From Nitrospirota bacterium (lineage in GTDB: Bacteria; Nitrospirota; Nitrospiria; Nitrospirales; NS-4), in assembly GCA_005877615.1 (NCBI GenBank), contig VBOD01000108.1, forward strand, positions 18,750-82,749: a DNA stretch of 64,000 bases, given 5' to 3'. The position numbers were made by a program, and so were the translations under genes. This document shows, one piece after another, positions 3,883-37,232 of the stretch. The stretch's first letter is position 1, and every line of letters begins with the position of its first letter. The notes below the pieces were generated by a model, which saw only the letters and a program-made list of their open reading frames with translations, was not told the DNA's origin and did no database searches.

Positions 3883-4491
3883 ATGGACGCGTTGAGCCCG
3901 AAACACCCATCCACCGTCGATCACACGCTCCTGGCGCGGGTCGCCAAAGGGGATCAGGAGGCGTTCGAGCGGCTCTACGCGCAGACCAGTTCGCTGCTCT
4001 ACGCCCTCGTGTTGCGGATCGTGGGGAAGCCGGCCGACGCAGCGGACCTCCTGCAGGAGGTGTACCTGGAAGCCTGGCGCAAGGCCTCGAACTACGACAC
4101 CGCTCGAGGCGCTCCGATGGCCTGGCTGGTGACGCTGGCGAGAAGCCGCGCCATCGATTGGGTCCGCGCGCTGGCCGCCCGCGGCAAGGACGTGACCGCC
4201 TCCCTCGACGACACGCCCGCCTCAGACCTCATCGCCCAGAACGCAGACGCCCTGGACATCCGCGCGGCCAACGAGCGCCAGGCCCTGGTCCGGGCTTCTC
4301 TCAAGTCCCTGCCGCCGGTGCAGCAGCAAGCGATCGAGCTCGCCTTCTATGAGGGATTGACGCACACGGAGATCTCCGAACGTTTGCATGTGCCCTTGGG
4401 AACGATCAAGACGAGAATCCGTCTGGGGATGGAAAAGCTCCGGGACGGCCTGCAGACTCTCTGGGAGGAGGAGTTGGGGATCCCCAACTAG
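3883..4491 (+). CDS. ECF (group 4) RNA polymerase sigma factor, SigK-like
   Basis: Region 2 DLLQEVYLEAWRKASNYD...AWLVTLARSRAIDWVR. Region 4 QQQAIELAFYEGLTHTEISERLHVPLGTIKTRIRLGMEKLR. Confidence 0.9.
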   Translation: MDALSPKHPSTVDHTLLARVAKGDQEAFERLYAQTSSLLYALVLRIVGKPADAADLLQEVYLEAWRKASNYDTARGAPMAWLVTLARSRAIDWVRALAARGKDVTASLDDTPASDLIAQNADALDIRAANERQALVRASLKSLPPVQQQAIELAFYEGLTHTEISERLHVPLGTIKTRIRLGMEKLRDGLQTLWEEELGIPN

Positions 4492-4499
4492 GCGATCAG

Positions 4500-5696
4500 G
4501 TGGACCACGAGCAACTGGAAGAGAACCTGAGCCTGTACGCACTGGGCGCCCTCGACCCGGACTCGGTCCGCGAGATGGAACAGCACCTCGCGGCCGGATG
4601 CCCGGCGTGCAGTACCCTGCTCCGGCAATACCAGGCCGCCGTGACCATGCTCCCGTACGCGCTGCCGCACCAGACGCCCCCGCCTACACTCAAGTCCAGG
4701 ATCATGACAGCACTCTCTGGACCTGCCGCCTCCACCACCAGCGCGAGAGCGGACAGGCCCGCGTCCCCGGTGCCTATCCCGACCGCGCCGCCGGACCTGG
4801 TCTCGTCGCGCCCCTTCTCCAGGATCCCACAGGACCTGCCCGAGATGCCGGCACCGCAGCCCCTATCACGCCGCAGTGCGTCTCCCACGTGGCGGGAGCA
4901 GTTGAGGGCGACGTCCCCGGCCTTGGCCCACGCGCTTGAAGCCCTGCTGAAGCGTCTATCCCGCCGCCATGAGTTTCACAAATGGCGGGAGCAGATGAAG
5001 GTAGAGTCTCCGGCCTTCGCCGCCGCGCTTGGAGTCCTGCTGCTAGGTGTGGCAGGCTACGCCGTTCACCAGTACAACACGTTTGAAGCGGAACGAACGG
5101 CGACAGCCCGGGAGAGAGCAGAGGCGGCCCAATCGAAGCAGGAGACCGCCGATCTCAAACGCCAGTTGGCGGATAAGGAAGCCGCACTCACCAAAGCGAC
5201 GGATGAGCTGAAACGCACCGTCGAAACTCTGGGGACCACGCGCGAGCAACTCGCCCGGCACCAGGAACAGATCGACACGCTCCGGGCGCAACTCAAAACG
5301 GGGCGCGGCCGCAAGGGCGCCGAGGTTCTGCTGGCCGGAGGGGAGGATCTCCTGCGCATCCTGTCCTCCCCCACCGCCAAGATGGCGGATCTGCACGGGA
5401 CCGACGAGGCCAAGGACGCGTATGCCCTGGTGTTTGTGGAACCGGAGACGCGGCGCGGGTTCTTCTACGCCAACAATCTCCCGTCTCTCCCAGCCGGCAA
5501 GACCTACCAGCTCTGGGTGATCACCGACAAACCCGTCAGCGCCGGGGTGTTCTCAATCGATCGCGGGCACAAGGGCCGCCTGCTGATGCGCAACATTCCC
5601 GTCGTGCGCCGCATCAAGAAATTCGCGGTGAGCCTCGAACCGGAAGGCGGCCTCCCGCAGCCGACCGGCAGCATCTACCTGGCCGGCGCGCCGTAA
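4500..5696 (+). CDS. Anti-sigma factor (N-terminal zf-HC2, one TM helix, C-terminal RskA-like domain)
   Basis: HLAAGCPAC zinc motif and TM helix AFAAALGVLLLGVAGYAV. The C-terminal motif YQLWVITDKPVSAGVF...FAVSLEPEGG is typical of anti-sigma-K RskA. It lies directly downstream of the ECF sigma gene. Confidence 0.8.
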   Translation: MDHEQLEENLSLYALGALDPDSVREMEQHLAAGCPACSTLLRQYQAAVTMLPYALPHQTPPPTLKSRIMTALSGPAASTTSARADRPASPVPIPTAPPDLVSSRPFSRIPQDLPEMPAPQPLSRRSASPTWREQLRATSPALAHALEALLKRLSRRHEFHKWREQMKVESPAFAAALGVLLLGVAGYAVHQYNTFEAERTATARERAEAAQSKQETADLKRQLADKEAALTKATDELKRTVETLGTTREQLARHQEQIDTLRAQLKTGRGRKGAEVLLAGGEDLLRILSSPTAKMADLHGTDEAKDAYALVFVEPETRRGFFYANNLPSLPAGKTYQLWVITDKPVSAGVFSIDRGHKGRLLMRNIPVVRRIKKFAVSLEPEGGLPQPTGSIYLAGAP

Positions 5697-5712: not shown

Positions 5713-8700
5713 TTACAGAACGACCGGCACCGCCTGCCCCAGACGGAGGAAGATGACTTTGAACCCGGCGGGACAGTGACCCAACGCGTGGCGGACCGCC
5801 TCGGTGTAGATCCGGGCTTGCTCCCGGTAGGCCTCGGCCCGTTCCGCCACGTCAACCTCGGTAACGCGGTCAGTCTTGTAATCCGCCAGCCACACCGTGC
5901 CGTCCCTCTTATAAATGAGGTCGATGCGCCCTTCCATTAGAGCGGGAGAGGGCCCCGCTGACGCCCCTCCCGCACCCACTAGAGTGAGAGGGGGCCCCGG
6001 CCACGGCATGAGGAAGGGGACTTCGCGGCCGAGAATCGTGGCCTCTTTCAATTCGCCGTAGGCGTCGGAGCGCGCAAAGGCCTGCAGCACCTCACGGGCC
6101 TCTGCGAGAATCTCGTCACGATTCCCTTTGAACTCGTCCGGGAGCCAGCGTGCGGCGCGGCGATCTAATTGTTCAAGCAACACTTCAACCGTATCGCGAT
6201 AACTCCAGTCCTCTAGCGCTCTATGGACAAGGCCGCCGATGGCCGAAGCCAGCGTCGGGGAAGTTGTTGAAGTCGGCCCTTGGGGAGCGCCTTCGAGTGG
6301 GTGCGGGAGGGATGATGGTGTCAGGTAGAGGGATCGCTGGCGGCACTGCGACCACCGATCCTCACGGGCGCGCCAGCGGGCCTCAAACCCCGTGAGCTCG
6401 CGACGCGGCGCGGCGTCCTTCTTCTTCCGTCCTCCCCCGGCTCGCTTGCCGACGCCGGCGGGAATGACTGTCTTCGAGATGAGGTCGTCTGCAAGAGTAG
6501 GAGGGGGCCCCGCAGACACCCCTCCCACACCCACCTCCTCCTTGAGCAAGGCCAGGAAATTGCCCGGACTCTGCCGTCGCGTCAGCGCGCCCGAGAGCAC
6601 GAGCCGCTCCTTCGCGCGTGTCATCCCCACGTAGAGCAAGCGCCGCCGCTCGGCCTCGAGACGCGCCTCCAGCTTCTCCGCCACGTACGCCCCGCCCAGC
6701 GTGCAGCGCTCGCCCAGCCGCAGGCCCAAGACTCCCGTGGACCAATCCTGCTGGACTTGGATCGGCTCGTAGGGAGGCTTGGTGCCGGCATGCAACCCGA
6801 CCAGAATGACGATCGGGAACTCCAGCCCTTTGGCCTTGTGGACGCTCATGATCCGCACCGCCTCGCGGGATGTCTCCTCCGCCAGTCCGCTCTCGGACTC
6901 GTCCGGAGGGTCGGCGAGACGCGCTTTCAGCAGCTCCACGAAGCCGGCAAGCGTCATGCCGGGCTGATCCACGAGACCGTCGGCGAGCGCCCGCACCTTC
7001 CAGAGGTTCGCGACCGCCTGCTCGCCGTGCAAGGACGCCGCCGCCAGCTCCAGCAGGGGTAGCCGCTCGAAGATCAAGTCCAGCGCGTCCGGCAGCGGGC
7101 GCAGCGGGCAGTCCCGCTGCAGGGACGCGAGCGCCGCGTACAGCCGGCGTAGGTGACCGGCCTTGGGATGCGAGTCCAGACCGGACGGCCCCGTGCCGCG
7201 ATAATCCAGCGGCCCCAGCGCGACGAGGTCCATGATCTCCCGATCGGTCAGCGCGCCCACGGCCGAACGCAGCAGTCCCAACAGCGCGACCTGATCATGC
7301 GGATTCTGAACGCAGCACACGAGGTTGACGAGGTCAATCACCTCCTGCCGCTGGTAGAAATGTCGCTCCCCCTCCGCCACGTACGGCAGGCCGTGCCGGC
7401 GCAAGGCGCCCAGATACTCCCAGCTTTGCGTGAACGTCCGAAACAGCAGCGCCACATCCCCCGGCTCGACCGGACGGCGCCGTCCGTCCCGCTCGATCAG
7501 CACGTCCTGCCCGATGACCTCATGCTTCAGCCACCGCGCGACGGCTTCCGCTTCGGCCTCGACGCCTTCCTCGGCGCTGAGCGAAGCCCGCTCCTCATCG
7601 CGCGACGAGGATGCCACCAGCCGAAGCTCGACGCCCTGTGTCTGGGCGCCGGTCTTGCGGTCGGGGTCCGGCTCCAGGGGATCGTAGCGCGGCTGGAGGC
7701 CCGGGCGCTCGCGGATCAATCGCTCGAAGACCTGGTTGACGGCCATGAGGATCGTGCCATGACTGCGGAAATTCCGGGTGAGGGTGAGCGGCAGGCCGTC
7801 CTGGTCCTCCACCATCTGGCGGACGCGCTGGAACGCCTCGATATCAGCGCGACGGAACGCGAAGATCGACTGCTTGGGATCGCCGACGATGAACAGCTTG
7901 CCGGGATGCAGGCGTACGTTTGGCCAGGCCTCGGCCAGTCTGTCCTCATGCTCGGCCAGGAAGAGGAGGATCTCGTACTGAACCGGATCGGTATCCTGAA
8001 ACTCATCCACGAGGATGGCCTTGAACAGGCGCTTCAGCCGCGCCCGGACCTGCGGGTGGGTCTTCAGCAGGTCGCGGGCGCGGGCCAGGAGGCCGTCGAA
8101 CCGGACGTAGCCCGCATCGAGAAACCGTTGCCGGCACTGCGCGGCGAACGGCTCCAGCAGCCCGAGCAGGTCGCGGAAGAAGGCGTGATCGCTCGCCAGC
8201 ACCGCCTTGGCGGTCCTGACCAGATTGGCGGCGTCCTCAAACTCTTCCTCGCTCCAGCCGGCCGGAGGCTTCGCGCCTCCGTCCTTCTGCTCCAACAGCG
8301 TCCGCAGCTCCGCATCCAGTTCCGTAATGCCCGCAGGGCCGCCGCTGAGCACGCGGCCGAACAGACGGTCTGCGGCAGCCAGCAGCGCTTCGATTTGACG
8401 CGGCTTCTTCCCTCCCTCGCGGGAGGCCGACAAGAGCTCCCCTGCCCGCTGCTGCTTGCGTTCAAGCCAGGACCGGAGCGTCGGCGCGAGCCCGCCGCCG
8501 ACCTGGTCTTTGAGCGAATCGAGCGGGATGAGGTCATTGACCAGGGCCTTGGCGAACAACTCCAGCCCGGCCAGGTCCATGCCGCGCAGCACCCGTTTCC
8601 ACCGCTCCTGCCGGGGACAGGTGCCGCCGAGCTCGCCGTCCAGCCACTCACGCCACTCGCGCGTGAAGAAGTCGTCGAAGACGAACTCCTCATCAGGCGT

Positions 8701-9159
8701 GAACCGGGGATCCACGCCCGCTTCCAGGGGATAGAGGCGCAGGAGGTGCGCGGCGAAACTATGAATGGTCCCGATCTGGCTGTTCTCGAGCTCGCCCAGC
8801 GCCGCCTCGACCCGGCCCCGCAGCTCGTCGGTGGAGAGGCGATAGCGCGTGCGCAGGTCGGCGGCGGACAGGCGGTAGCGATCCCACAGCTCGCGGGCCG
8901 CCGGGGAGTCGTCCGGCGCCAGGACGCACTCCAGGCATTCCCGCAGGCGGATCTTGATCTCGTTGGCGGCCTTGTTCATGAACGTGAGCGCGACGACCTG
9001 CGACAGCGGCACCGCCTCGGGCGATTTGACGAGCAGGTGCACCAGGCGCGTGATCAGCAAGGTCGTCTTGCCGGTGCCCGCGCTGGCCGTCACCACCACG
9101 TTCCGATCGAAGGTCGTGGCGGCAAGAACCCGCGCCTGCTCGTCCCGTATCGCGGTCAC
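5713..9159 (-). CDS. addA: ATP-dependent helicase/nuclease subunit A (UvrD/Rep helicase + C-terminal PD-(D/E)XK nuclease)
   Basis: Walker A ASAGTGKTTLL. Helicase motifs ILVDEFQDTDPVQ, FIVGDPKQSIFAFRRAD and SVHKAKGLEFP...LLYVGMTRAKERL. Nuclease motif GRIDLIY...LADYKTD. Confidence 0.85.
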   Translation of the reverse strand: MTAIRDEQARVLAATTFDRNVVVTASAGTGKTTLLITRLVHLLVKSPEAVPLSQVVALTFMNKAANEIKIRLRECLECVLAPDDSPAARELWDRYRLSAADLRTRYRLSTDELRGRVEAALGELENSQIGTIHSFAAHLLRLYPLEAGVDPRFTPDEEFVFDDFFTREWREWLDGELGGTCPRQERWKRVLRGMDLAGLELFAKALVNDLIPLDSLKDQVGGGLAPTLRSWLERKQQRAGELLSASREGGKKPRQIEALLAAADRLFGRVLSGGPAGITELDAELRTLLEQKDGGAKPPAGWSEEEFEDAANLVRTAKAVLASDHAFFRDLLGLLEPFAAQCRQRFLDAGYVRFDGLLARARDLLKTHPQVRARLKRLFKAILVDEFQDTDPVQYEILLFLAEHEDRLAEAWPNVRLHPGKLFIVGDPKQSIFAFRRADIEAFQRVRQMVEDQDGLPLTLTRNFRSHGTILMAVNQVFERLIRERPGLQPRYDPLEPDPDRKTGAQTQGVELRLVASSSRDEERASLSAEEGVEAEAEAVARWLKHEVIGQDVLIERDGRRRPVEPGDVALLFRTFTQSWEYLGALRRHGLPYVAEGERHFYQRQEVIDLVNLVCCVQNPHDQVALLGLLRSAVGALTDREIMDLVALGPLDYRGTGPSGLDSHPKAGHLRRLYAALASLQRDCPLRPLPDALDLIFERLPLLELAAASLHGEQAVANLWKVRALADGLVDQPGMTLAGFVELLKARLADPPDESESGLAEETSREAVRIMSVHKAKGLEFPIVILVGLHAGTKPPYEPIQVQQDWSTGVLGLRLGERCTLGGAYVAEKLEARLEAERRRLLYVGMTRAKERLVLSGALTRRQSPGNFLALLKEEVGVGGVSAGPPPTLADDLISKTVIPAGVGKRAGGGRKKKDAAPRRELTGFEARWRAREDRWSQCRQRSLYLTPSSLPHPLEGAPQGPTSTTSPTLASAIGGLVHRALEDWSYRDTVEVLLEQLDRRAARWLPDEFKGNRDEILAEAREVLQAFARSDAYGELKEATILGREVPFLMPWPGPPLTLVGAGGASAGPSPALMEGRIDLIYKRDGTVWLADYKTDRVTEVDVAERAEAYREQARIYTEAVRHALGHCPAGFKVIFLRLGQAVPVVL
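5939..5997 (-). repeat. In-frame GC-rich palindromic repeat element, 1.5 units, inside the addA nuclease domain
   Basis: Core at 5944-5979; on the minus strand it reads GTGGGTGCGGGAGGGGCGTCAGCGGGGCCCTCTCCC. An extra half unit GAGAGGGGGCCCC lies at 5985-5997. Translated as PGPPLTLVGAGGASAGPSPAL. Confidence 0.8.
6494..6534 (-). repeat. In-frame GC-rich palindromic repeat element inside addA
   Basis: Core at 6499-6534; on the minus strand it reads GTGGGTGTGGGAGGGGTGTCTGCGGGGCCCCCTCCT. Translated as VGVGGVSAGPPP. Confidence 0.8.
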
Positions 9160-9163
9160 GGCG

Positions 9164-12100
9164 TCACCTCCCTCCGCCTGCTCGTTGCTGCCGGAGGTCC
9201 TCCAAGATTCGTTTCGCTACGTTGTCCCGCTGCCGCCACTTGGTCGGATGATGGGTCCGGCGGCAGGCCGGGGAAAACTCACAATAGTCGCAGTACTCGC
9301 CGGGCAGGATAAAGAAGCGCCCGTGCTGCACCCCCTCGAGGATCACGCGCACGGTCCCCTCCCCGCAGACCGCCGCGAGCCTCGTCCGCACCACCGGCCC
9401 GTTCGGCCAGTACGGGGCAAGGAAATAGAAGGCCGCCTCGTCCGGCACGGCCGGCTCCTCCTTTAAGACGCCGGTGGCGGCCAGCAAGTACAGCGGCGGC
9501 TGCAGGCGCTTCCCTCTGAGGGCCGCCGTCGCCAGATCGCGGTCTTCCAGTTTGGGCCCGCCCGACTCCGTGTACTTGTAGTCCACGATGCGGACATGGG
9601 CCTGCCCGTTCTCCCGACGCACATCCACCCGATCGAGGCGGCCGCGGATCGGCACGTGGCGCTGGGTGTCCGGCAACGTCGCGCCGAACGAGCCGGTCAC
9701 GGCCACCTCGAACAAGAGCGGACGGTAGCCGGACGCCCGCAGCTCCTGGAGGTCGTTCTCGATGAACGTCCGGACGAGGCGAGTGAGGTCTTCCTTGACC
9801 AGAGACCAGAGCAAGGGATAGCCGACGGGTTCGGTGGCTTCGAAATGGGTGAAGGCTTCGTCGGCAGCCGCACCCAGCCAGGCGTCGATGTCGGAGGAGG
9901 TCACCTGATCCGGAGCGACCTTGCGTTCAGTCAGCCGCTGGTAGAACAGTCGGAGGATGGCGTGGCACAGGGTGCCGCGGGCCCGCGCGTCCGGCACGAG
10001 GACGGAATCGGGCGTCTCCAGCGGCTCGAGCCGCAGGACTTTTTCGGCAAAATACTTGAAGGGACACTGCGCGTAGCGTTCCAGGGCCGTGGGCGAGACT
10101 CCGTGCCGCTCCAACATCCGCCAGTGGGCGCGGGCGACTCCGACCATGCCGTCATGGGGCGTCAGCGCCGGCTTCATCGAGTCAAGGGAGGCGACCGCCG
10201 CCAGCCCGTGCGCGAACAGCTCGGGCGGCTGATGCAGCCGCAACACCGACGTGAGGCTGGACGACGCGCCCCCTTGCAGGATCATCAGCAGGCCCGCCTC
10301 GCGCGGCGTGAGGACGGCGTAGTCGGACGGCCGCTGGGCAAACGGCCGCTCCGTCCACCGTAACGTCGGGCGACGCGTGATCCGGAGCTCGCTCTCGCCG
10401 ACGTGCGGCTTCAGCTCCGCCAGGTAGCCGGAGGGGACCATCATGCGGCCGTCGCGGTCGGCGCGTTGATGGCTGAGGACGACCCGCTCGCGGGCCGAGC
10501 GGAGCAGGAGCGCGACGAGCAGGCGCTCTTCCTCGAACCCCTCCAGCTTGCACGGGATCTTGAAGCCGAGATCGCGCGCCAGGACAACCCGGTCGGCATC
10601 GCGCAAGAACGGGTCCTCCTGGACGGAGCGCGGGAAGACCTTCTCATTGAGCCCGAGCACGAAGAGGGCGCGGAACGGCACGCCGCGGGCGTCCATCGCA
10701 TCCAGGACCTGGACTCCGTGGCGATCGCCAGCCGCGGACGGCACGCGGGCACGCTCTAGCACGCGGATGACATGCTCCACCCAGTCCGCCAGGGTGATGG
10801 CCTCGCTCAACTGCTCCAGCGACGCGACGGACTCCAGACACGCCTTGATGGCCGTCTGCACCCGGTCTGCGTGCGTGTCCGACGCGCCCGTCTCCCAGGC
10901 CGGCAGGTGGAAGTATTCCGGCAGCAGCTGTCGAAACTCTTCGGTGTAAGCATCCCATCCCGCCGTGCCGGGCAGCGCCGAGAGGGCCCGGTGCAGCCGC
11001 GCGACCAGGTCGAACAGCAGCGCCACCTGCTCGGCGGCGATGGCCGGCCGGGGCTGCTCCGCGTCATCGTCAACAGGCACGGCAAGGCCCGTCTTCGCGG
11101 CCCGCTCCAGGCGCAGCCAATCGCCCAGGCTGCCATCTTCCGGATTGCCCCGAACGATGCCCAGACGGCGGGTCGCCCAATCCCACAGGTCCGGGCGCAG
11201 ATTTGCATCAGCCGGACAGAGTTCTGCAACTCGGAAGGCGGGGGAAGTCAAAACCTCGATCACGAAAGCCCGCGGGAAGGCTTCCACCGGGAGGCGGAGA
11301 AACCGGATGATCGTCTTGACCAGCGGTTCATGGATCAGGGGCTCGCCCACCGGACAGGCGAAGGGAATCCGGTTGTCATCAAAGATGCGGCGGAGAGTCG
11401 GCATATAGGGGTCGAGCGTCCGCGCCACGACGCCGATCTCCAGCGGATCGCAGCGGGAGTCCTCGATCAGGCGGAGAATCTCCTTGGCCGCCGCCGCCAC
11501 CTCGTCCTCGACGCCGACGACGCTGACGATGCGGCAGGCCCCGCGAACAGCCGGTGCCATTTCATCAGCCAGCGATGACGTAGTGGGTGTGGGAGGGGCG
11601 CTTCGGGTGGGGCCCCCTCCCACTCTAATGGCCAACCCCTGGATGTACGTCTCAAAGAACCGCTGCGCGAACCGGTAGTCCGCGGATTCCGGTCGCACGG
11701 GGAAAAAGAGCGTGGTGGGGTACGCGCCCGCGACGGCCTTGAAGAAATCCAGTTGGCCTTGGGTCAAGTCGTAAAAGCCGTAGTAGCAGATGCGGGCCAT
11801 GCGGTTCAGGAACGCGGAGTCCGCCACGCGCTCCATGGCCAGGGCGGCCAGATCGTCCGGATCGGCGAGCCGCAGCGCCCGGTCCACTTCGAGAACGGCC
11901 GCGTACAGGCGAACCAGCGCGGCCAGGCGCGCCGGGTCGTCGGTCCTGAGCCGCCCCTCGTCCAGCGCCTGTAACACGGCGGACGGATCCACCCGCGCTT
12001 CCTTCAGGTCCTGGACCGTCGCCCAGAGACCGGTCCAGAGCCCCTGCATCCCCCGCCGGTCGCGGAATGCCTCCGCGCCGGGCACGCCGCGGTCCACGAG

Positions 12101-12391
12101 ATAGCGCAGCAGCTCTTCGCGGAAGGATCCGTTCACCAGGGCCGGCAGGATTTCTCCGCCCGCCTCCCGGAGCACGGTCATGGCCAGTTGATGGAACGTC
12201 AGCACGTGGCACTCAAGGAGCGCGCGCCCCTGCTCCACGGACAGGAGCCATTTCACGCGCCGCGCGAGCTGATGCGACGGGACCACGATGGCGAGCGGGC
12301 GGAGCGGATCGTCCTGTTTCAGCGAGTGGGATTCAGCGACGAGGGCGTTTTCGAGATCGGGATGGAACGGACCGGTGACGATCGAGAGCAT
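9164..12391 (-). CDS. addB: Helicase/nuclease subunit B (AddB-type, PD-(D/E)XK nuclease with Fe-S cluster cysteines)
   Basis: Lies 4 nt downstream of addA. C-terminal motif GRLDRVDV...IVDYKY and Cys cluster QCPFKY...CDYCEFSPAC. The size (1075 aa) is typical of AddB. Confidence 0.8.
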   Translation of the reverse strand: MLSIVTGPFHPDLENALVAESHSLKQDDPLRPLAIVVPSHQLARRVKWLLSVEQGRALLECHVLTFHQLAMTVLREAGGEILPALVNGSFREELLRYLVDRGVPGAEAFRDRRGMQGLWTGLWATVQDLKEARVDPSAVLQALDEGRLRTDDPARLAALVRLYAAVLEVDRALRLADPDDLAALAMERVADSAFLNRMARICYYGFYDLTQGQLDFFKAVAGAYPTTLFFPVRPESADYRFAQRFFETYIQGLAIRVGGGPTRSAPPTPTTSSLADEMAPAVRGACRIVSVVGVEDEVAAAAKEILRLIEDSRCDPLEIGVVARTLDPYMPTLRRIFDDNRIPFACPVGEPLIHEPLVKTIIRFLRLPVEAFPRAFVIEVLTSPAFRVAELCPADANLRPDLWDWATRRLGIVRGNPEDGSLGDWLRLERAAKTGLAVPVDDDAEQPRPAIAAEQVALLFDLVARLHRALSALPGTAGWDAYTEEFRQLLPEYFHLPAWETGASDTHADRVQTAIKACLESVASLEQLSEAITLADWVEHVIRVLERARVPSAAGDRHGVQVLDAMDARGVPFRALFVLGLNEKVFPRSVQEDPFLRDADRVVLARDLGFKIPCKLEGFEEERLLVALLLRSARERVVLSHQRADRDGRMMVPSGYLAELKPHVGESELRITRRPTLRWTERPFAQRPSDYAVLTPREAGLLMILQGGASSSLTSVLRLHQPPELFAHGLAAVASLDSMKPALTPHDGMVGVARAHWRMLERHGVSPTALERYAQCPFKYFAEKVLRLEPLETPDSVLVPDARARGTLCHAILRLFYQRLTERKVAPDQVTSSDIDAWLGAAADEAFTHFEATEPVGYPLLWSLVKEDLTRLVRTFIENDLQELRASGYRPLLFEVAVTGSFGATLPDTQRHVPIRGRLDRVDVRRENGQAHVRIVDYKYTESGGPKLEDRDLATAALRGKRLQPPLYLLAATGVLKEEPAVPDEAAFYFLAPYWPNGPVVRTRLAAVCGEGTVRVILEGVQHGRFFILPGEYCDYCEFSPACRRTHHPTKWRQRDNVAKRILEDLRQQRAGGGR
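11583..11627 (+). repeat. In-frame GC-rich palindromic repeat element inside addB, opposite orientation to the other copies
   Basis: Core at 11583-11621; on the plus strand it reads GTGGGTGTGGGAGGGGCGCTTCGGGTGGGGCCCCCTCCC. The gene reads the complementary strand as VGGGPTRSAPPTPT. Confidence 0.8.
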
Positions 12392-12513
12392 GACGGAAGT
12401 AGCCTAACGGAAAACCGAGAGGGGCACAAGAACGGATGTCACCTTTTGCACGCTGCCGTGTCTCATTGACAAGGAAAACAGTCCAGCATACTCTTTCCAA
12501 ACACGGATTCACG

Positions 12514-13107
12514 ATGGACCAGGAACTCGTTCAGTATCTCGATAGCCGATTCCAATCGGTTACCAGGCAATTCCAAGAGTTGCGGGGGGAGATGAGTGAA
12601 CAGCTCCAAGGGTTGCGCGGCGGGACGACCGAGGGGTTCCAAGGGTTGCGTGATGAGACGACTGCGGGGCTCCAAGAGTTGCGTGGCGAAATGACCGCGG
12701 GGTTCCAAGAATTGCGCGGCGAGATGACCGCAGGGCTCCAAGGGTTACGCGGGGAGATGACTGAGGCGCTCCAGGGGTTGCGCGGCGAGATGACCGCGGG
12801 GTTCCAAGGGTTACGCGGGGAGATGACTGAGGAACTCCAAGAGTTGCAGGGGGAGATGACCGCGGGGCTGGAAGAGGTCAAGCGGCACTCCGGCGTGCTG
12901 GTAGAAGGCCTCCGGCACGAGCTTCAGCTCGTGGCCGAAGGCTTCGCCATGCACGTCCAAGTTCAGCACGTGCAGGAACGGGAATACCACGACCGGCAGC
13001 ATCAGGAGACCCGCGCGCTCATCCGATCACTCTATGATGAGCTCCGGCAGCAGCACGACCACCTCCGCCAGCGTGTCGAGAACCTCGAACAGAAGAGACA
13101 GAACTAG
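12514..13107 (+). CDS. Repeat protein: nine tandem 11-residue units (LRGEMTAGxQG) followed by a His/Gln-rich coiled-coil tail
   Basis: ATG at 12514 within ORF 12436..13107. TTGACA (12466-12471), 17 nt, TACTCT lie upstream. The periodic sequence is visible in both DNA and protein. Confidence 0.7.
   Translation: MDQELVQYLDSRFQSVTRQFQELRGEMSEQLQGLRGGTTEGFQGLRDETTAGLQELRGEMTAGFQELRGEMTAGLQGLRGEMTEALQGLRGEMTAGFQGLRGEMTEELQELQGEMTAGLEEVKRHSGVLVEGLRHELQLVAEGFAMHVQVQHVQEREYHDRQHQETRALIRSLYDELRQQHDHLRQRVENLEQKRQN
12580..12876 (+). repeat. Tandem 33-nt coding repeat, 9 units
   Basis: Units TTGCG(C/G)GG(C/G)GAGATGAC(C/T)GCGGGG(T/C)TCCAAG(G/A)G with few substitutions. They encode LRGEMSEQLQG, LRGGTTEGFQG, LRDETTAGLQE, LRGEMTAGFQE, LRGEMTAGLQG, LRGEMTEALQG, LRGEMTAGFQG, LRGEMTEELQE and LQGEMTAGLEE. 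Confidence 0.9.
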
Positions 13108-31465: not shown

Positions 31466-32133
31466 GCCGAACTTTCGATCGCCTTCACCAATTCTACCAT
31501 TGCTTTGCTAGGGTCAGTAGCCGCGAGCACCGCGGAGATTACCGCGCAGCAGTCGGCGCCCGCGGCCACGACCTCGCGGACATTCTTGGTAGTGATGCCG
31601 CCGATTGCCACAATCGGCACCCGCACCTTCGCCCGCACCTCCCGCAGTCCGGCTATGCCGACAACCGGGGCCGGATGCTCCTTCGTGGAGGTCGGAAAGA
31701 TCGGCCCGAAGCCGACGTAGTCCGCTCCACCAGCGTCGGCTTCGAACGCCTGCTTCATCGTATGCGTCGAGATCCCGATCAGCTTGTCGGATCCCAGGAT
31801 CGCCCGTGCATCGGCCAGCGGCAAGTCCTCCTGCCCCAGATGCACTCCATCTGCGCCAACCGCCTGCGCAACATCCACCCGGTCGTTCACGATGAACGTT
31901 CCCCCACCGGCCCGGACCAGCGCGCAGACCTGAGCCGCCAGGTCGTAGAACTCGCCCGCGTGCGGGGTTTTCATACGCAGTTGAAAAAAGCGCACTCCGG
32001 TCGTGAGCGCGGTCTTGACGAGATCGGGCAACGACAGGGAGCCCGCGACGGCCGGATCCAGGATCAGATAGAGCCCTGCCGGGAAAGGGACGCGTCTCGG
32101 CGCGTCCGGGGCGGGTGGGTGCAATGGGCGCAT
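31462..32133 (-). CDS. thiE: Thiamine-phosphate synthase
   Basis: FFQLRMK, NDRVDVAQAVGADGVHLGQEDL, IGISTH and GADYVGFGPIFPTSTK. Start taken at MRPLHP (32133), 15 nt after the accC stop. Confidence 0.85.
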   Translation of the reverse strand: MRPLHPPAPDAPRRVPFPAGLYLILDPAVAGSLSLPDLVKTALTTGVRFFQLRMKTPHAGEFYDLAAQVCALVRAGGGTFIVNDRVDVAQAVGADGVHLGQEDLPLADARAILGSDKLIGISTHTMKQAFEADAGGADYVGFGPIFPTSTKEHPAPVVGIAGLREVRAKVRVPIVAIGGITTKNVREVVAAGADCCAVISAVLAATDPSKAMVELVKAIESSA

Positions 32134-32147
32134 TGGCCCCACCACGC

Positions 32148-33500
32148 TCAGCTTGTCGGCGGCGGAGAGGAGAAGCGCTCGAGAAAAGAGGTGGAGAAGC
32201 GGCCCTTCTGGAAGTCGGGATCGTCGAGGATGCGGCGGTGCAGCGGGATCGTGGTCTTGATGCCTTCCACCACGCACTCATCCAACGCGCGACGCATCCG
32301 GGCCAGCGCCTCCTCGCGCGTCATGCCGTGGACGATCAGTTTCGCAATCAGCGAGTCGTAGTGAGGGGTGATCTCGGACCCCGGTTCAATCGCCGAATCC
32401 ACTCGGACCCCCGGACCTCCCGGCGGATGGCAGCGCGTGATCCGCCCCGCGCACGGTTGGAAGGTGTCGGGACACTCGGCATTGATCCGGCACTCGATGC
32501 TGTGGCCGATCATCTTCACGTCCTGCTGCTTCCAGGACAGCGGCAGACCCGCGGCGATCCTGATCTGCTCCTTGACGAGATCGATGCCGGTGACCTCTTC
32601 GGTGATGGGATGCTCGACCTGGATCCGCGTGTTCATCTCCATGAAATAGAACCGGTGCTCCTTGTCCAGCAGGAACTCCACGGTCCCCGCGTTCCGGTAC
32701 CGGACCGCCTGGGCAGCTTCGACCGCCACACGGCCGAGTTCGCGCCGGAGGCGGTCGTCCACCGCCGGCGACGGCGTCTCCTCGATGAGCTTCTGGTAGC
32801 GGCGCTGGACGGAACAGTCTCGCTCTCCGAGATAGATCGTCCGACCGCGCTCGTCCGCCAGGATCTGGACTTCAATGTGGCGCGGCTCGAGGAAGTACCG
32901 CTCCACGTACACGCTCTGGTTGCCGAACGCCGCGTTGGCCTCCGCGCGGGCCGCCTCAAAGGCGTGCGCCAGTTCATCCTCCTTGTTCACCACCCGCATC
33001 CCGCGTCCCCCGCCGCCCGCCGACGCCTTGATGATCACCGGGTAGCCGATTTTGGCCGCCACAGCCGCGGCCTCCTGCTCGCTCGTGATCTCTCCCTCGC
33101 TGCCGGGCAGCACCGGCAAGCCCTGGCGGATCATGATGTCGCGCGCCTTCGCCTTGTCCCCCATTGTGCCAATGCTCTCGGAGGTCGGCCCGATGAACTT
33201 GATGCCGATCGACTCGCATACCTCGGCGAAGTGGGCGTCCTCGGCTAGGAAGCCGTACCCCGGGTGGATGGCGTCGCAGGCGGTGATCTCCGCCGCGCTC
33301 AGGATGTTCGGGATGTTGCGGTAGCTGAGCGCCGGATCGGCCGGTCCGATGCACAGGTGCTCGTCCGCGAGCCGCACGTGCAGGGCGTCCTTGTCCACTT
33401 CGGAATGGACGGCCACGCTGCGGATGCCCAGTTCCTTGCAGGCCCGGATGACCCGCACCGCGATCTCGCTGCGGTTGGCCACGAGGATTTTCTTGAACAC
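32148..33500 (-). CDS. accC: Acetyl-CoA carboxylase, biotin carboxylase subunit
   Basis: [35 protein letters not shown] and [14 protein letters not shown]. Confidence 0.95.
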
Positions 33501-35957: not shown

Positions 35958-37232
35958 CTACGGAAGAATGAGCACCGCGTCAAGAATTCGATGCGCCAGC
36001 TCATGCTTGGACATGAGCGGCAATGCCTCACAACGGCCCGCACGGTCCAGCAAGGTCGCGCGGTTCGTGTCCGTGCCGAACCCGGCTCCGGGCTCTGAGA
36101 CGTCGTTGGCGACGATCAGGTCCAGCGCCTTGTCGAGCAGCTTGCCTCTGGCGCGCGCGACCAGATCGCCCGTCTCGGCCGCGAACCCGACCACGAGCTG
36201 CCCGGCCCGTCGCGGCGGCAGGTCCTTCAAAATGTCCTTGGTCGGCTCCAGTGCCAGCGTCCGCACGTCGCGGCCTTTCGGTACCTTGCCCTGGGCCGGG
36301 CGCGCCGGCCGGAAATCGGCGACCGCCGCCGCCATGATCAGCACATCGGTGCCTGGGAAACGGGTGACGACTTCTTTACGCATCTCCTCGGACGTGACCA
36401 CCGAGACGTACGCGACGTTGGGAACGGGCGCAAGACTGGTCGGCCCCGCGACCAGGACGACGTCAGCGCCGCGATCCCGTGCGGCTTCCGCCAGCGCCCA
36501 GCCCATCTTCCCGGACGAGCGGTTCGACAGGAACCGCACCGGATCGAGCGGTTCCTGCGTGGGCCCGGCCGTGATGAGGACCCGCCGGCCGCGAAAGTCC
36601 TTGGCGCAGAGAGCCCCGAAGATCGCCGATAGGATGGCGTCCTCCTCGGGAAAGCGCCCCTGGCCGACCCGGCCCGACGCCAACGGCCCGACCTCCGGCT
36701 CCAGCACGGTGACCCCGCGCTGACGGAGCGTCCGCACGTTGGCGCAGACCGCCGGGTGGGTCCACATGCCGCCGTCCATGGCGGGAACCACCACCACCGG
36801 GCACTCCGCCGCAAGCACCAGCGTCGTGAGGAGATCGTCGGCGAGGCCATGCGCCAGCTTGGCGACGCAGTGAGCCGAGGCCGGCGCGATCGCGATCAGA
36901 TCGGCTCCGTCCGCGAGCGCAAGGTGCGGCATGACATTCACAGCGGGAGGGGGCCCCGCGGAACGCGCCCCTCCCGCACCCACCTCTCCGCTCGACGACG
37001 GAAACAGATCGGTGCCGACGGGGTGGCCCGTGAGCGCCTCAAAGGTCAGCGGTGCGACGAAGCGCTGCGCGGTGTGGGTCATGACCACGCGCACCGTCGC
37101 TCCTTCGGTCATCAGGCGGCGCGCCAGCGACGCCGCCTTGTAGGCGGCGATGCTGCCGGTCACTCCGAGCACGATGGTCTTCCCCGCCAAGCGCGCGGCA
37201 GGCGCGAGGGGGGTGCGTTTAGTCGTCTTCAC
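35958..37232 (-). CDS. coaBC: Bifunctional phosphopantothenoylcysteine decarboxylase / phosphopantothenate--cysteine ligase
   Basis: N-terminal flavoprotein domain (IVLGVTGSIAAYKA, PAMDGGMW) and C-terminal CoaB domain (ITAGPTQEPLDPVRFLSNRSSGKMG, AAAVADFRP). Confidence 0.9.
   Translation of the reverse strand: MKTTKRTPLAPAARLAGKTIVLGVTGSIAAYKAASLARRLMTEGATVRVVMTHTAQRFVAPLTFEALTGHPVGTDLFPSSSGEVGAGGARSAGPPPAVNVMPHLALADGADLIAIAPASAHCVAKLAHGLADDLLTTLVLAAECPVVVVPAMDGGMWTHPAVCANVRTLRQRGVTVLEPEVGPLASGRVGQGRFPEEDAILSAIFGALCAKDFRGRRVLITAGPTQEPLDPVRFLSNRSSGKMGWALAEAARDRGADVVLVAGPTSLAPVPNVAYVSVVTSEEMRKEVVTRFPGTDVLIMAAAVADFRPARPAQGKVPKGRDVRTLALEPTKDILKDLPPRRAGQLVVGFAAETGDLVARARGKLLDKALDLIVANDVSEPGAGFGTDTNRATLLDRAGRCEALPLMSKHELAHRILDAVLILP
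36942..36983 (-). repeat. In-frame GC-rich palindromic repeat element inside the coaBC flavoprotein domain
   Basis: Core at 36945-36983; on the minus strand it reads GTGGGTGCGGGAGGGGCGCGTTCCGCGGGGCCCCCTCCC. Translated as VGAGGARSAGPPP. Confidence 0.8.

Follow-up and report, generated by a model that had tools for sequence, protein, structure and literature searches.

Rickettsia palindromic elements (RPEs; Ogata et al. 2000, 2002) are palindromic repeats of about 100-150 bp inserted in frame, as summarized in PMC10969869 and PMC3733652; the former gives about 150 bp and credits R. conorii with 44 insertions, about half of them within open reading frames (ORFs). Repetitive extragenic palindromes (REPs) may also be intragenic: Di Nocera et al. 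2013 found such copies in several species, many in genes of replication and repair including recBCD and uvrABCD, with different REPs at the same recB site of two Xanthomonas species and with REP ends that can give stop codons (PMC3733652). [quoted passage not shown] Then there are the DNA uptake sequences, short repeats in genes that occur in both orientations and in preferred reading frames, and that arise by substitution (PMC2817400). The subject here is a 45-nt segment within an addB gene of a Nitrospirota bacterium (GCA_005877615.1), in a 64-kb stretch of contig VBOD01000108.1 (positions 18,750-82,749 of the forward strand; the window hereafter, with positions counted from its first letter). 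The segment is a flipped copy of a GC-rich hairpin repeat specific to Nitrospirales, and I consider it quite probable that this repeat is a DNA-level element of the REP/RPE sort that has been filtered for tolerable translation.

The plus strand from 11583 to 11627 reads GTGGGT-GTGGGAGGGG-CGCTTCGGGTG-GGGC-CCCCTCCCAC-TCTA, exactly one 45-nt unit of the family. A covariance model built from 94 family copies, strand-specific by virtue of the leader, bulge and tail of the element, finds the addB copy on the minus strand (11580-11632) with 64.7 bits (E ~7e-15) and grants the plus strand just 15.9 bits, which come from the symmetric stem alone. The same model places the three sister copies of the window on the plus strand (36934-36986, 5933-5982 and 6488-6537) with 57-68 bits. 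Since a strand-specific model separates the strands so widely, and assigns the three sisters to the plus strand, the inversion of the addB copy is real, as an earlier note on this DNA had claimed. An independent repeat search of the window found 11583-11624 to be 83% complementary to 36942-36983, and the exact 35-mer is expected 0 times in shuffles. All four full copies lie in frame within minus-strand genes, and the addB copy alone is itself on the minus strand. Another match to the model, at 32112-32156, was weak and unconvincing on inspection.

The reading frame that the note had assigned to addB holds as well. The ORF is uninterrupted across the element (...QGLAIRVGGGPTRSAPPTPTTSSLADEM...), homologues align on either side of the insert in the same frame, and the copy would be translated in frame as RVGGGPTRSAPPTPT, the insert reading AIRVGGGPTRSAPPTPTTSS. 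The predicted peptide over the insert junction is ...GLAIRVGGGPTR... in AddB and ...GEVGAGGAR... in CoaBC, the host of one of the sister copies. A smaller claim, that the left flank TAGAGT is common to the addA copies and this one, survives in part: the flanks are CCATTAGAGT in addB, CCATTAGAGC in addA copy A, CACTAGAGT in the half copy and GCAAGAGT in addA copy B, and only a portion of the motif is shared.

The anatomy of the family follows from an alignment of about 105 copies, oriented so that the C-rich end is 3'. A moderately conserved flank, CCAT, is followed by a 4-nt leader (TAGA, for example), an arm GYGGGAGGGG, a bulge GCCC, an inner stem-loop, a second arm CCCCTCCCRC and a tail ACCCAC. 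The base before the stem is A in 88 of 105 copies, within a consensus NAG. Inner stem-loops fall into classes of 8, 11 or 12 nt and units are 42 or 45 nt long, with the hairpin making up 35 nt of the unit; in the 12-nt class the leader is one base shorter, which brings the total again to 45 nt. This last subfamily is over-represented at the 3' ends of genes (loci L004, L042, L089 and L039), where murG takes its C-terminal tail and its stop codon from the element. A frequent G-to-A variant (GTGGAAGGGG) is a marker of a subfamily and does not represent independent mutations.

Both stems show compensatory changes. At the second pair of the outer stem 48 copies have C-G and 40 have U-A, 6 being exceptions, and one inner pair is found as G-C in 77 copies, as A-U in 10 and as G-U in 5. 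Covariation scores 0.120; shuffles give 0.064, none of 500 reaching the observed score, and sliding the partners gives at most 0.031. The inner stem of the addB copy is imperfectly paired on the mRNA strand (A.C and C.A) and uses G.U pairs on the plus strand. Both strands are predicted to fold into stable hairpins (-25 to -32 kcal/mol); a composition so rich in GC keeps the z-scores modest (-1.6 to -2.7). No family in Rfam matches the element. A comparison of which strand tolerates G.U, meant to separate selection on RNA from selection on DNA, was dropped: right arm and tail were set by the pattern used in the scan, which left variation to the left arm alone, and the G-to-A variant, as a subfamily marker, does not count as independent changes.

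Compensatory changes and stable folds on both strands are what would recommend an alternative view, that the hairpin is a functional nucleic-acid element under selection and its coding compatibility secondary. It might be an mRNA hairpin that, with or without the help of the encoded polyproline, makes ribosomes pause between domains or alters the decay of the mRNA, or else a DNA site for a protein or recombinase. The modest z-scores tell against this, and covariation has other possible sources, namely the structure of subfamilies or the repair of mismatches in an extruded hairpin, which would likewise produce paired changes. I regard this view as unlikely, for reasons that come mostly from the fate of individual copies, considered below.

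A copy was counted as intragenic if it is spanned by an ORF that is coding-like by a criterion based on GC at third codon positions. By this measure 87-89 of about 107 copies (about 82%) are intragenic, the same share as the coding-like coverage of the loci (82.5%), and so the family is not depleted from genes. When orthologues are collapsed, there remain 69 independent intragenic sites in 57 host protein families, and the frame is kept at every one of them. Among the hosts that Pfam matches or gene context could name are PriA, AddA, AddB, CoaBC, MurG, the aminoacyl-tRNA synthetases ValRS and AlaRS, CarA, EPSP synthase (AroA), PurL and NuoL, besides a secretin, a MacB/FtsX permease, an SLT transglycosylase and a BioF-like enzyme. 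The remaining copies, about 20 (some 18%), are found between genes or at gene ends, where several fill the spacer from stop to start codon or provide a C-terminal tail and a stop, as in murG.

The six frames are used very unequally, 41, 15, 9, 2, 1 and 1 times over the 69 sites. The largest group, in which the element is antisense to the orientation given above, reads VG(A/V)GGA..AGPPP(A/T); the 15 sites of the addB type read (R)VGGGPA..APP(T/A)PT; 9 read EWEGAP..PLPHP; and 4 are spread over the three remaining frames. Over all copies the departure from uniform use is extreme (chi-square p = 8e-25), which bears out the expectation in the earlier note of an element filtered for in-frame tolerance. 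The census of orientation against host strand that it called for gave a less marked result: both orientations are used, and the bias relative to the gene is mild (53 vs 34, p = 0.05).

It is here that similarity at the level of protein has to be considered, by which convergent or homologous Gly/Pro linkers would account for everything and there would be no DNA element. Peptides rich in Gly, Ala and Pro, located in linkers, are certainly what this predicts. Yet one nucleotide sequence is read in two orientations and at least three frames to give different peptides, some copies lie between genes, synonymous positions are conserved too, the stems covary, and the family belongs to a single lineage and is absent from orthologues elsewhere. 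The two orientations, the three main frames and the 18% of copies between genes or at gene ends uphold the DNA-level explanation that the note had favored, and the census effectively refutes the protein-level one, which I hold to be extremely improbable.

The note had also remarked that the element yields an open frame in both orientations. That is true, as a six-frame translation confirms: the 42-nt core is free of stops in all six frames, although two frames gain stops when the common flank CCATTAGAG is included, TAG in one orientation and TAA in the other. As evidence, the absence of stops is weak, since a palindrome so rich in GC is open both ways almost as a matter of course. Among random 42-mers of the window (65% GC), 21% are open in all six frames, and it is the census that carries the argument. 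What the palindrome does contribute is symmetry. Its reverse complement again starts GYGGGAGGGG and ends CCCCTCCCRC, so the two dominant frames are one and the same phase relative to the arms, read in either orientation. That phase (GTG GGA GGG ... CCT CCC ACN, or Val-Gly-Gly ... Pro-Pro-Thr) is used at 56 of the 69 sites (81%), and the other phases, which give peptides rich in Cys, Arg and Trp or else stops, are rare. The pattern is as expected if insertion is blind to phase and selection retains only flexible Gly/Pro loops.

I propose that an element acting at the level of DNA inserted itself into a wide range of unrelated genes as well as some spacers between genes. A unit whose length is a multiple of three and whose core lacks stops would leave the frame of the host unbroken, and in the favored phase, in either orientation, it would add a flexible peptide, rich first in Gly and then in Pro (VGxGGA..AGPPPT or RVGGGPA..APPTPT). 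Such a peptide would be tolerated in surface loops and in linkers between domains, the addB linker among them. Copies that fell in a phase rich in Cys, Arg and Trp or containing stops would have been purged by selection, and those that remained could later suffer partial deletion or gain nested hairpins. The copies are presumably translated and would have no function of their own.

Short GC-rich palindromic inserts are reportedly found also in protein-coding genes of yeast mitochondria, where the 'byp' hairpins that Lang et al. are said to have described in 2014 break the frame and are bypassed by the ribosome. The Nitrospirales element differs in that its frames are open and its frame use strongly selected, which implies translation rather than bypass. 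The favored frame encodes GPPP (at 6493-6534 and 36939-36983, for example) and the addB-type frame PP. Polyproline is a stalling motif that depends on elongation factor P, and the gene for that factor, efp, happens to be the third gene downstream of coaBC (L001), probably by coincidence.

The earlier note had also raised the idea of a G-quadruplex on the G-rich strand, whose orientation relative to transcription might matter. Of 105 copies, 50 do have a canonical motif (G3+N1-7 x4), always on the G-rich strand and never on the other, and the addB copy is one of them, with the motif on the template strand. The long-loop copies, though, are without a canonical motif, a C-rich arm of perfect complementarity in cis keeps the G tracts occupied, the hairpin explains the covariation of the inner stem and of position 2 of the outer stem, and the bias in gene orientation is weak. 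Covariation, the complementary arm and the weak bias together make a role for the quadruplex unnecessary, and it is very unlikely to be the explanation.

A scan of one genome per species with the pattern GGGCCCC-N5-12-CCCCTCCCRCACCCAC returned 90 stretches, of which 86 are in 22 metagenome-assembled genomes (MAGs) labeled Nitrospirota, Nitrospirales or Nitrospiraceae, from soil, groundwater, lakes and rock fractures; about 107 copies are known overall from the 22. Three more are chance-like matches without a left arm (in Planctomycetaceae, Streptomyces and Sericytochromatia). The last is a true copy in the Acidobacteriota-labeled MAG CAZRND01, and its co-assembly also gave a Nitrospirales MAG; mis-binning or horizontal transfer could be responsible. 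This copy (L078, 4286-4337) occupies precisely the gap from the stop codon of one gene to the start codon of another. Viral contigs contained no match to the pattern, the window itself matches scaffolds of soil metagenomes, and searches of the literature found no earlier description of the family in Nitrospira or Nitrospirae. Sources that are all metagenome assemblies invite the thought of an artefact of assembly or binning. Against it stand the consistent gene context in 22 independent MAGs from different studies and assemblers, the recurrence of copies in raw ENA, JGI and NCBI contigs, their orthologous placement and their graded decay, which leave a negligible chance for this explanation.

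The history of individual sites is best read in coaBC, whose homologues were retrieved by protein similarity, so that the set is free of the bias of a DNA pattern. Empty sites read ...FESS|MPHL... (GAATCATCC|ATGCCC in the DNA of L094). Other orthologues have complete copies, with both loop classes represented, remnants that have lost half of the element (NAPPTKMV in L093; EVGVGGG..GV) or copies with a nested insertion of 27 nt (ARVPVAPSNATGDGPPP). This insertion forms a small hairpin of its own, CCCGTTGC...GCAACGGG, that occurs also in L065 (~4440-4510) and L080 (~1600-1672). The same hairpin, nested inside the loop, is seen in CoaBC proteins P0113, P0114 and P0137 and in AddB proteins P0001 and P0005, adding 9-10 residues that read PVA...ATG in either orientation.

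The addB linker tells a similar story. At the insert, its length and sequence vary among distant homologues. L053 has a copy at the same site and in the same orientation, and was set aside as a partner for the conservation test as too closely related (third-position identity 83%); L095 (67% amino acid identity), which replaced it, also has a copy at that site in that orientation. In L096 (61% identity) the same linker holds a copy of the short class in the opposite orientation (DVGGASTEPPPTLM), and in L097 (Nitrospirae MAG NS_3, ~1250-1330) the place of the element is taken by an unrelated GC-rich hairpin repeat, CCCTCTCCCCTC/GAGGGGAGAGGG, with peptide PLTHTLSPREGRGKGEG. A fragment of an IS110-family transposase lies upstream of this last addB. 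A second addB site (window ~11150-11200, codons ~397-412, AELCPADANL) has an intact copy in L023 and decayed ones in L053 (ILVGGGDEG) and in the window, which may keep a faint trace (CPADA); it was rejected as a clean empty site because what the window has there is the decayed state of an old one. In an AlphaFold model of AddB residues 1-500, with a mean predicted local distance difference test (pLDDT) score of 79.6, the only long stretch of low confidence is 258-284, which overlaps the insert and runs on into the linker beyond it. The model thus portrays the insert as a disordered loop, in the linker between the N-terminal domain and the next domain.

How the copies spread can be judged from their surroundings. 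There is no target-site duplication, as no direct repeat of 2-4 nt rises above shuffled controls at any offset. The left flank prefers CCAT, with an information content of 0.3-0.8 bits, and the flank (or GCCAT) may be either a target-site preference or part of the element. Directly after 10 of the 107 copies comes another full or partial copy, preceded by a constant 4-nt leader, against a background of 0.6%, from which the tail ...CCCAC may act as a target in the manner of CCAT. Head-to-tail arrays with a period of exactly 42 nt are found in L004 (1782-1954), L033 (7111-7373), L089 (5217-5305) and the window (5938-6003), sometimes with subfamilies mixed.

Transposition of the IS200/IS605 type proceeds through single strands, moves a hairpin element and leaves no target-site duplication. 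The present family resembles that type, and the type of transposase associated with REPs (RAYT), in its hairpin, its lack of a duplication, the short motif on one flank (CCAY) and insertion beside existing copies. The analogy is one of mechanism only: there is no TnpA/Y1 transposase near the copies inspected, and the flank motif is only moderately conserved. Spread may well depend on the hairpin or on single strands, without duplication of the target and after CCAY-like sequences, possibly by way of a Y1/HUH-type transposase. The family is probably a selfish or near-neutral insertion sequence.

Several observations weigh against this account. One comes from addB itself: outside the inner stem-loop, the elements of the window and L095 are identical at 38 of 39 positions, while the third codon positions of the two genes are 52% identical. 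Conservation of the arms thus exceeds what simple neutral decay allows and needs selection, gene conversion among copies, hairpin-templated mismatch repair or re-insertion. The boundaries of insertion are not base-exact, the closest empty orthologues having diverged (L094; coaBC P0136 at 85% identity). The copies derived from the scan are biased towards intact right arms. Finally, no transposase or other mobilizing gene was found near copies, among ORFs inspected only between a few nearby ones, so that mobility has to be read from distribution alone. No RAYT was among the same ORFs, and between nearby inverted copies (L042 and L056) there are only murG and bioF-like genes.

Arms nearly unchanged when synonymous positions are close to saturation, a presence in genes that is not diminished and a dominant frame that encodes GPPP all favor a functional element. 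It is too much to expect, however, that an element with a function be found in hosts so heterogeneous and at such varied positions within the protein, that its presence differ among close relatives, or that so many coaBC and addB orthologues do without half or all of it and have nothing in its place. With partial deletions so frequent, it is hard to believe that any single site strongly requires the element. A bolder version has an outside chance of being right: that the repeat is an actively maintained, coding-compatible hairpin module, kept intact at orthologous sites by selection or by a dedicated mechanism of conversion or homing, which would, as hairpin together with polyproline, pause translation or structure mRNA at the inter-domain linkers of essential proteins, or that it is the substrate of an undescribed recombinase targeting CCAY without duplication. 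The reading I prefer remains that of a DNA repeat tolerated in translation. Its copies in the window, with their parts and hosts, are collected in Table 1.

Table 1. Positions in the window of the addB copy and its parts, the sister copies and the host genes
Feature	Position	Strand	Remarks
addB copy	11583..11627	-	in element orientation: leader TAGA, left arm GTGGGAGGGG, bulge GCCC, inner stem-loop CACCCGAAGCG, right arm CCCCTCCCAC, tail ACCCAC
Outer 10-bp stem, first arm	11589..11598		GTGGGAGGGG on plus strand
Outer 10-bp stem, second arm	11614..11623		CCCCTCCCAC on plus strand
Variable inner stem-loop and 4-nt bulge of addB copy	11599..11613
Conserved left-flank motif (G)CCAT, directly 5' of addB unit	11628..11632	-	from position matrix
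Sister copy A, 42-nt unit, in addA	5938..5979	+	orientation opposite to addB copy; minus-strand translation VGAGGASAGPSPAL
Half copy (leader, left arm, bulge)	5980..6003	+	head to tail against copy A; kept in L003 addA orthologue
Sister copy B, 42-nt unit, in addA	6493..6534	+	translation VGVGGVSAGPPPTL
Sister copy D, 45-nt unit, in coaBC	36939..36983	+	translation VGAGGARSAGPPPAV; directly ahead of conserved MPHL motif
Possible degenerate piece (right arm and tail, TCCCTCCCGCACCCAC), in addA	6297..6312	-	weak call; same orientation as addB copy; 7.1-bit model match at 6294-6319
addB-like host gene (helicase-nuclease subunit, 1075 aa)	9164..12391	-	insert is residues 254-271
addA-like host gene (UvrD-type helicase and PD-(D/E)XK nuclease)	5713..9159	-
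coaBC host gene	35958..37232	-	TIGR00521, 423 bits

The AddB ORF has an ADDB_N domain (PF21445, residues 23-219) and a PD-(D/E)XK domain (PF12705, residues 765-1044), and it adjoins an ORF with the UvrD-helicase and PD-(D/E)XK domains of an AddA-like protein. The NCBIfam models for AddB and AddA are the best matches to the pair, yet they fall below the equivalog cut-offs; 'addB' is therefore a reasonable name for a distant member. In coaBC, by comparison with the solved CoaBC structure of M. smegmatis, the copy adds 18 residues directly before the MPHL/His loop. The motif belongs to the decarboxylase domain and its histidine is the active-site histidine of this enzyme family, and the position next to it is a surprisingly sensitive place for an insert to be tolerated.

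The window contains other repeats. Just upstream of addB, a 33-nt tandem array (12572-12876; 9.2 copies, 76% matches) lies in a plus-strand ORF (12436-13107) and probably encodes a protein repeat of 11 residues. Adjacent direct repeats are found at 4858-5042 (92 nt twice, 76% identity), in a plus-strand ORF (4500-5696), and near the start of the window at 213-330 (58 nt twice, 83% identity).

How, then, does the family compare with the systems described at the outset? As with RPEs, so far as the cited summaries describe them, a palindromic family sits in frame in many unrelated housekeeping genes, presumed translated, compatible with structure, selfish and filtered by selection. By the same accounts RPEs belong to AT-rich, obligately intracellular Rickettsia, whereas the present element is a mere 42 or 45 nt, very rich in GC and at home in free-living, uncultured Nitrospirales. 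Its two orientations share one phase relative to the arms, and about 82% of its copies are intragenic, against about half of those reported for RPEs; size and lineage set it apart from the RPEs known from those sources, and homology is not expected. REPs (20-40 bp) are likewise short imperfect palindromes in many copies, some within genes. They are mainly extragenic, however, and come as inverted dimers, while this family is mostly intragenic and comes as singletons or head-to-tail arrays, and it lacks the REP tags (of 105 copies, 3 have GTAG and 8 have CGTC near the ends). Its arms are inverted repeats like those of MITEs, without the target-site duplication and at 42-45 nt rather than the usual 70-300 bp. 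DNA uptake sequences add no residues, whereas the element is a clear insertion of 14-18 residues relative to empty orthologues. The family is best described as a new one of a known kind, the coding-compatible palindromic repeat, notable for its small modular size, a length that remains a multiple of three across subfamilies, its undiminished presence in essential genes and the equivalence of its orientations in arm phase.

The presence of selfish DNA within protein-coding genes, a phenomenon familiar chiefly from Rickettsia and a minority of REPs, thus extends to free-living, high-GC and environmentally important Nitrospirales. It takes an extreme form there, a module of 14-15 codons found in genes at the rate of chance placement, core enzymes such as PriA, AddAB, CoaBC, MurG and aminoacyl-tRNA synthetases included. 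It accounts for odd Gly/Pro-rich insertions that face annotators and structure predictors in such MAGs, and its sites offer a natural map of loops that tolerate insertion. Repeats of this sort may also fragment assemblies. Should the conservation of the arms turn out to reflect a function or a new mechanism of mobilization, the family would be of greater interest still. As it stands, the equivalence of orientations imposed by the palindrome is a tidy general principle for how hairpin repeats can be compatible with coding.

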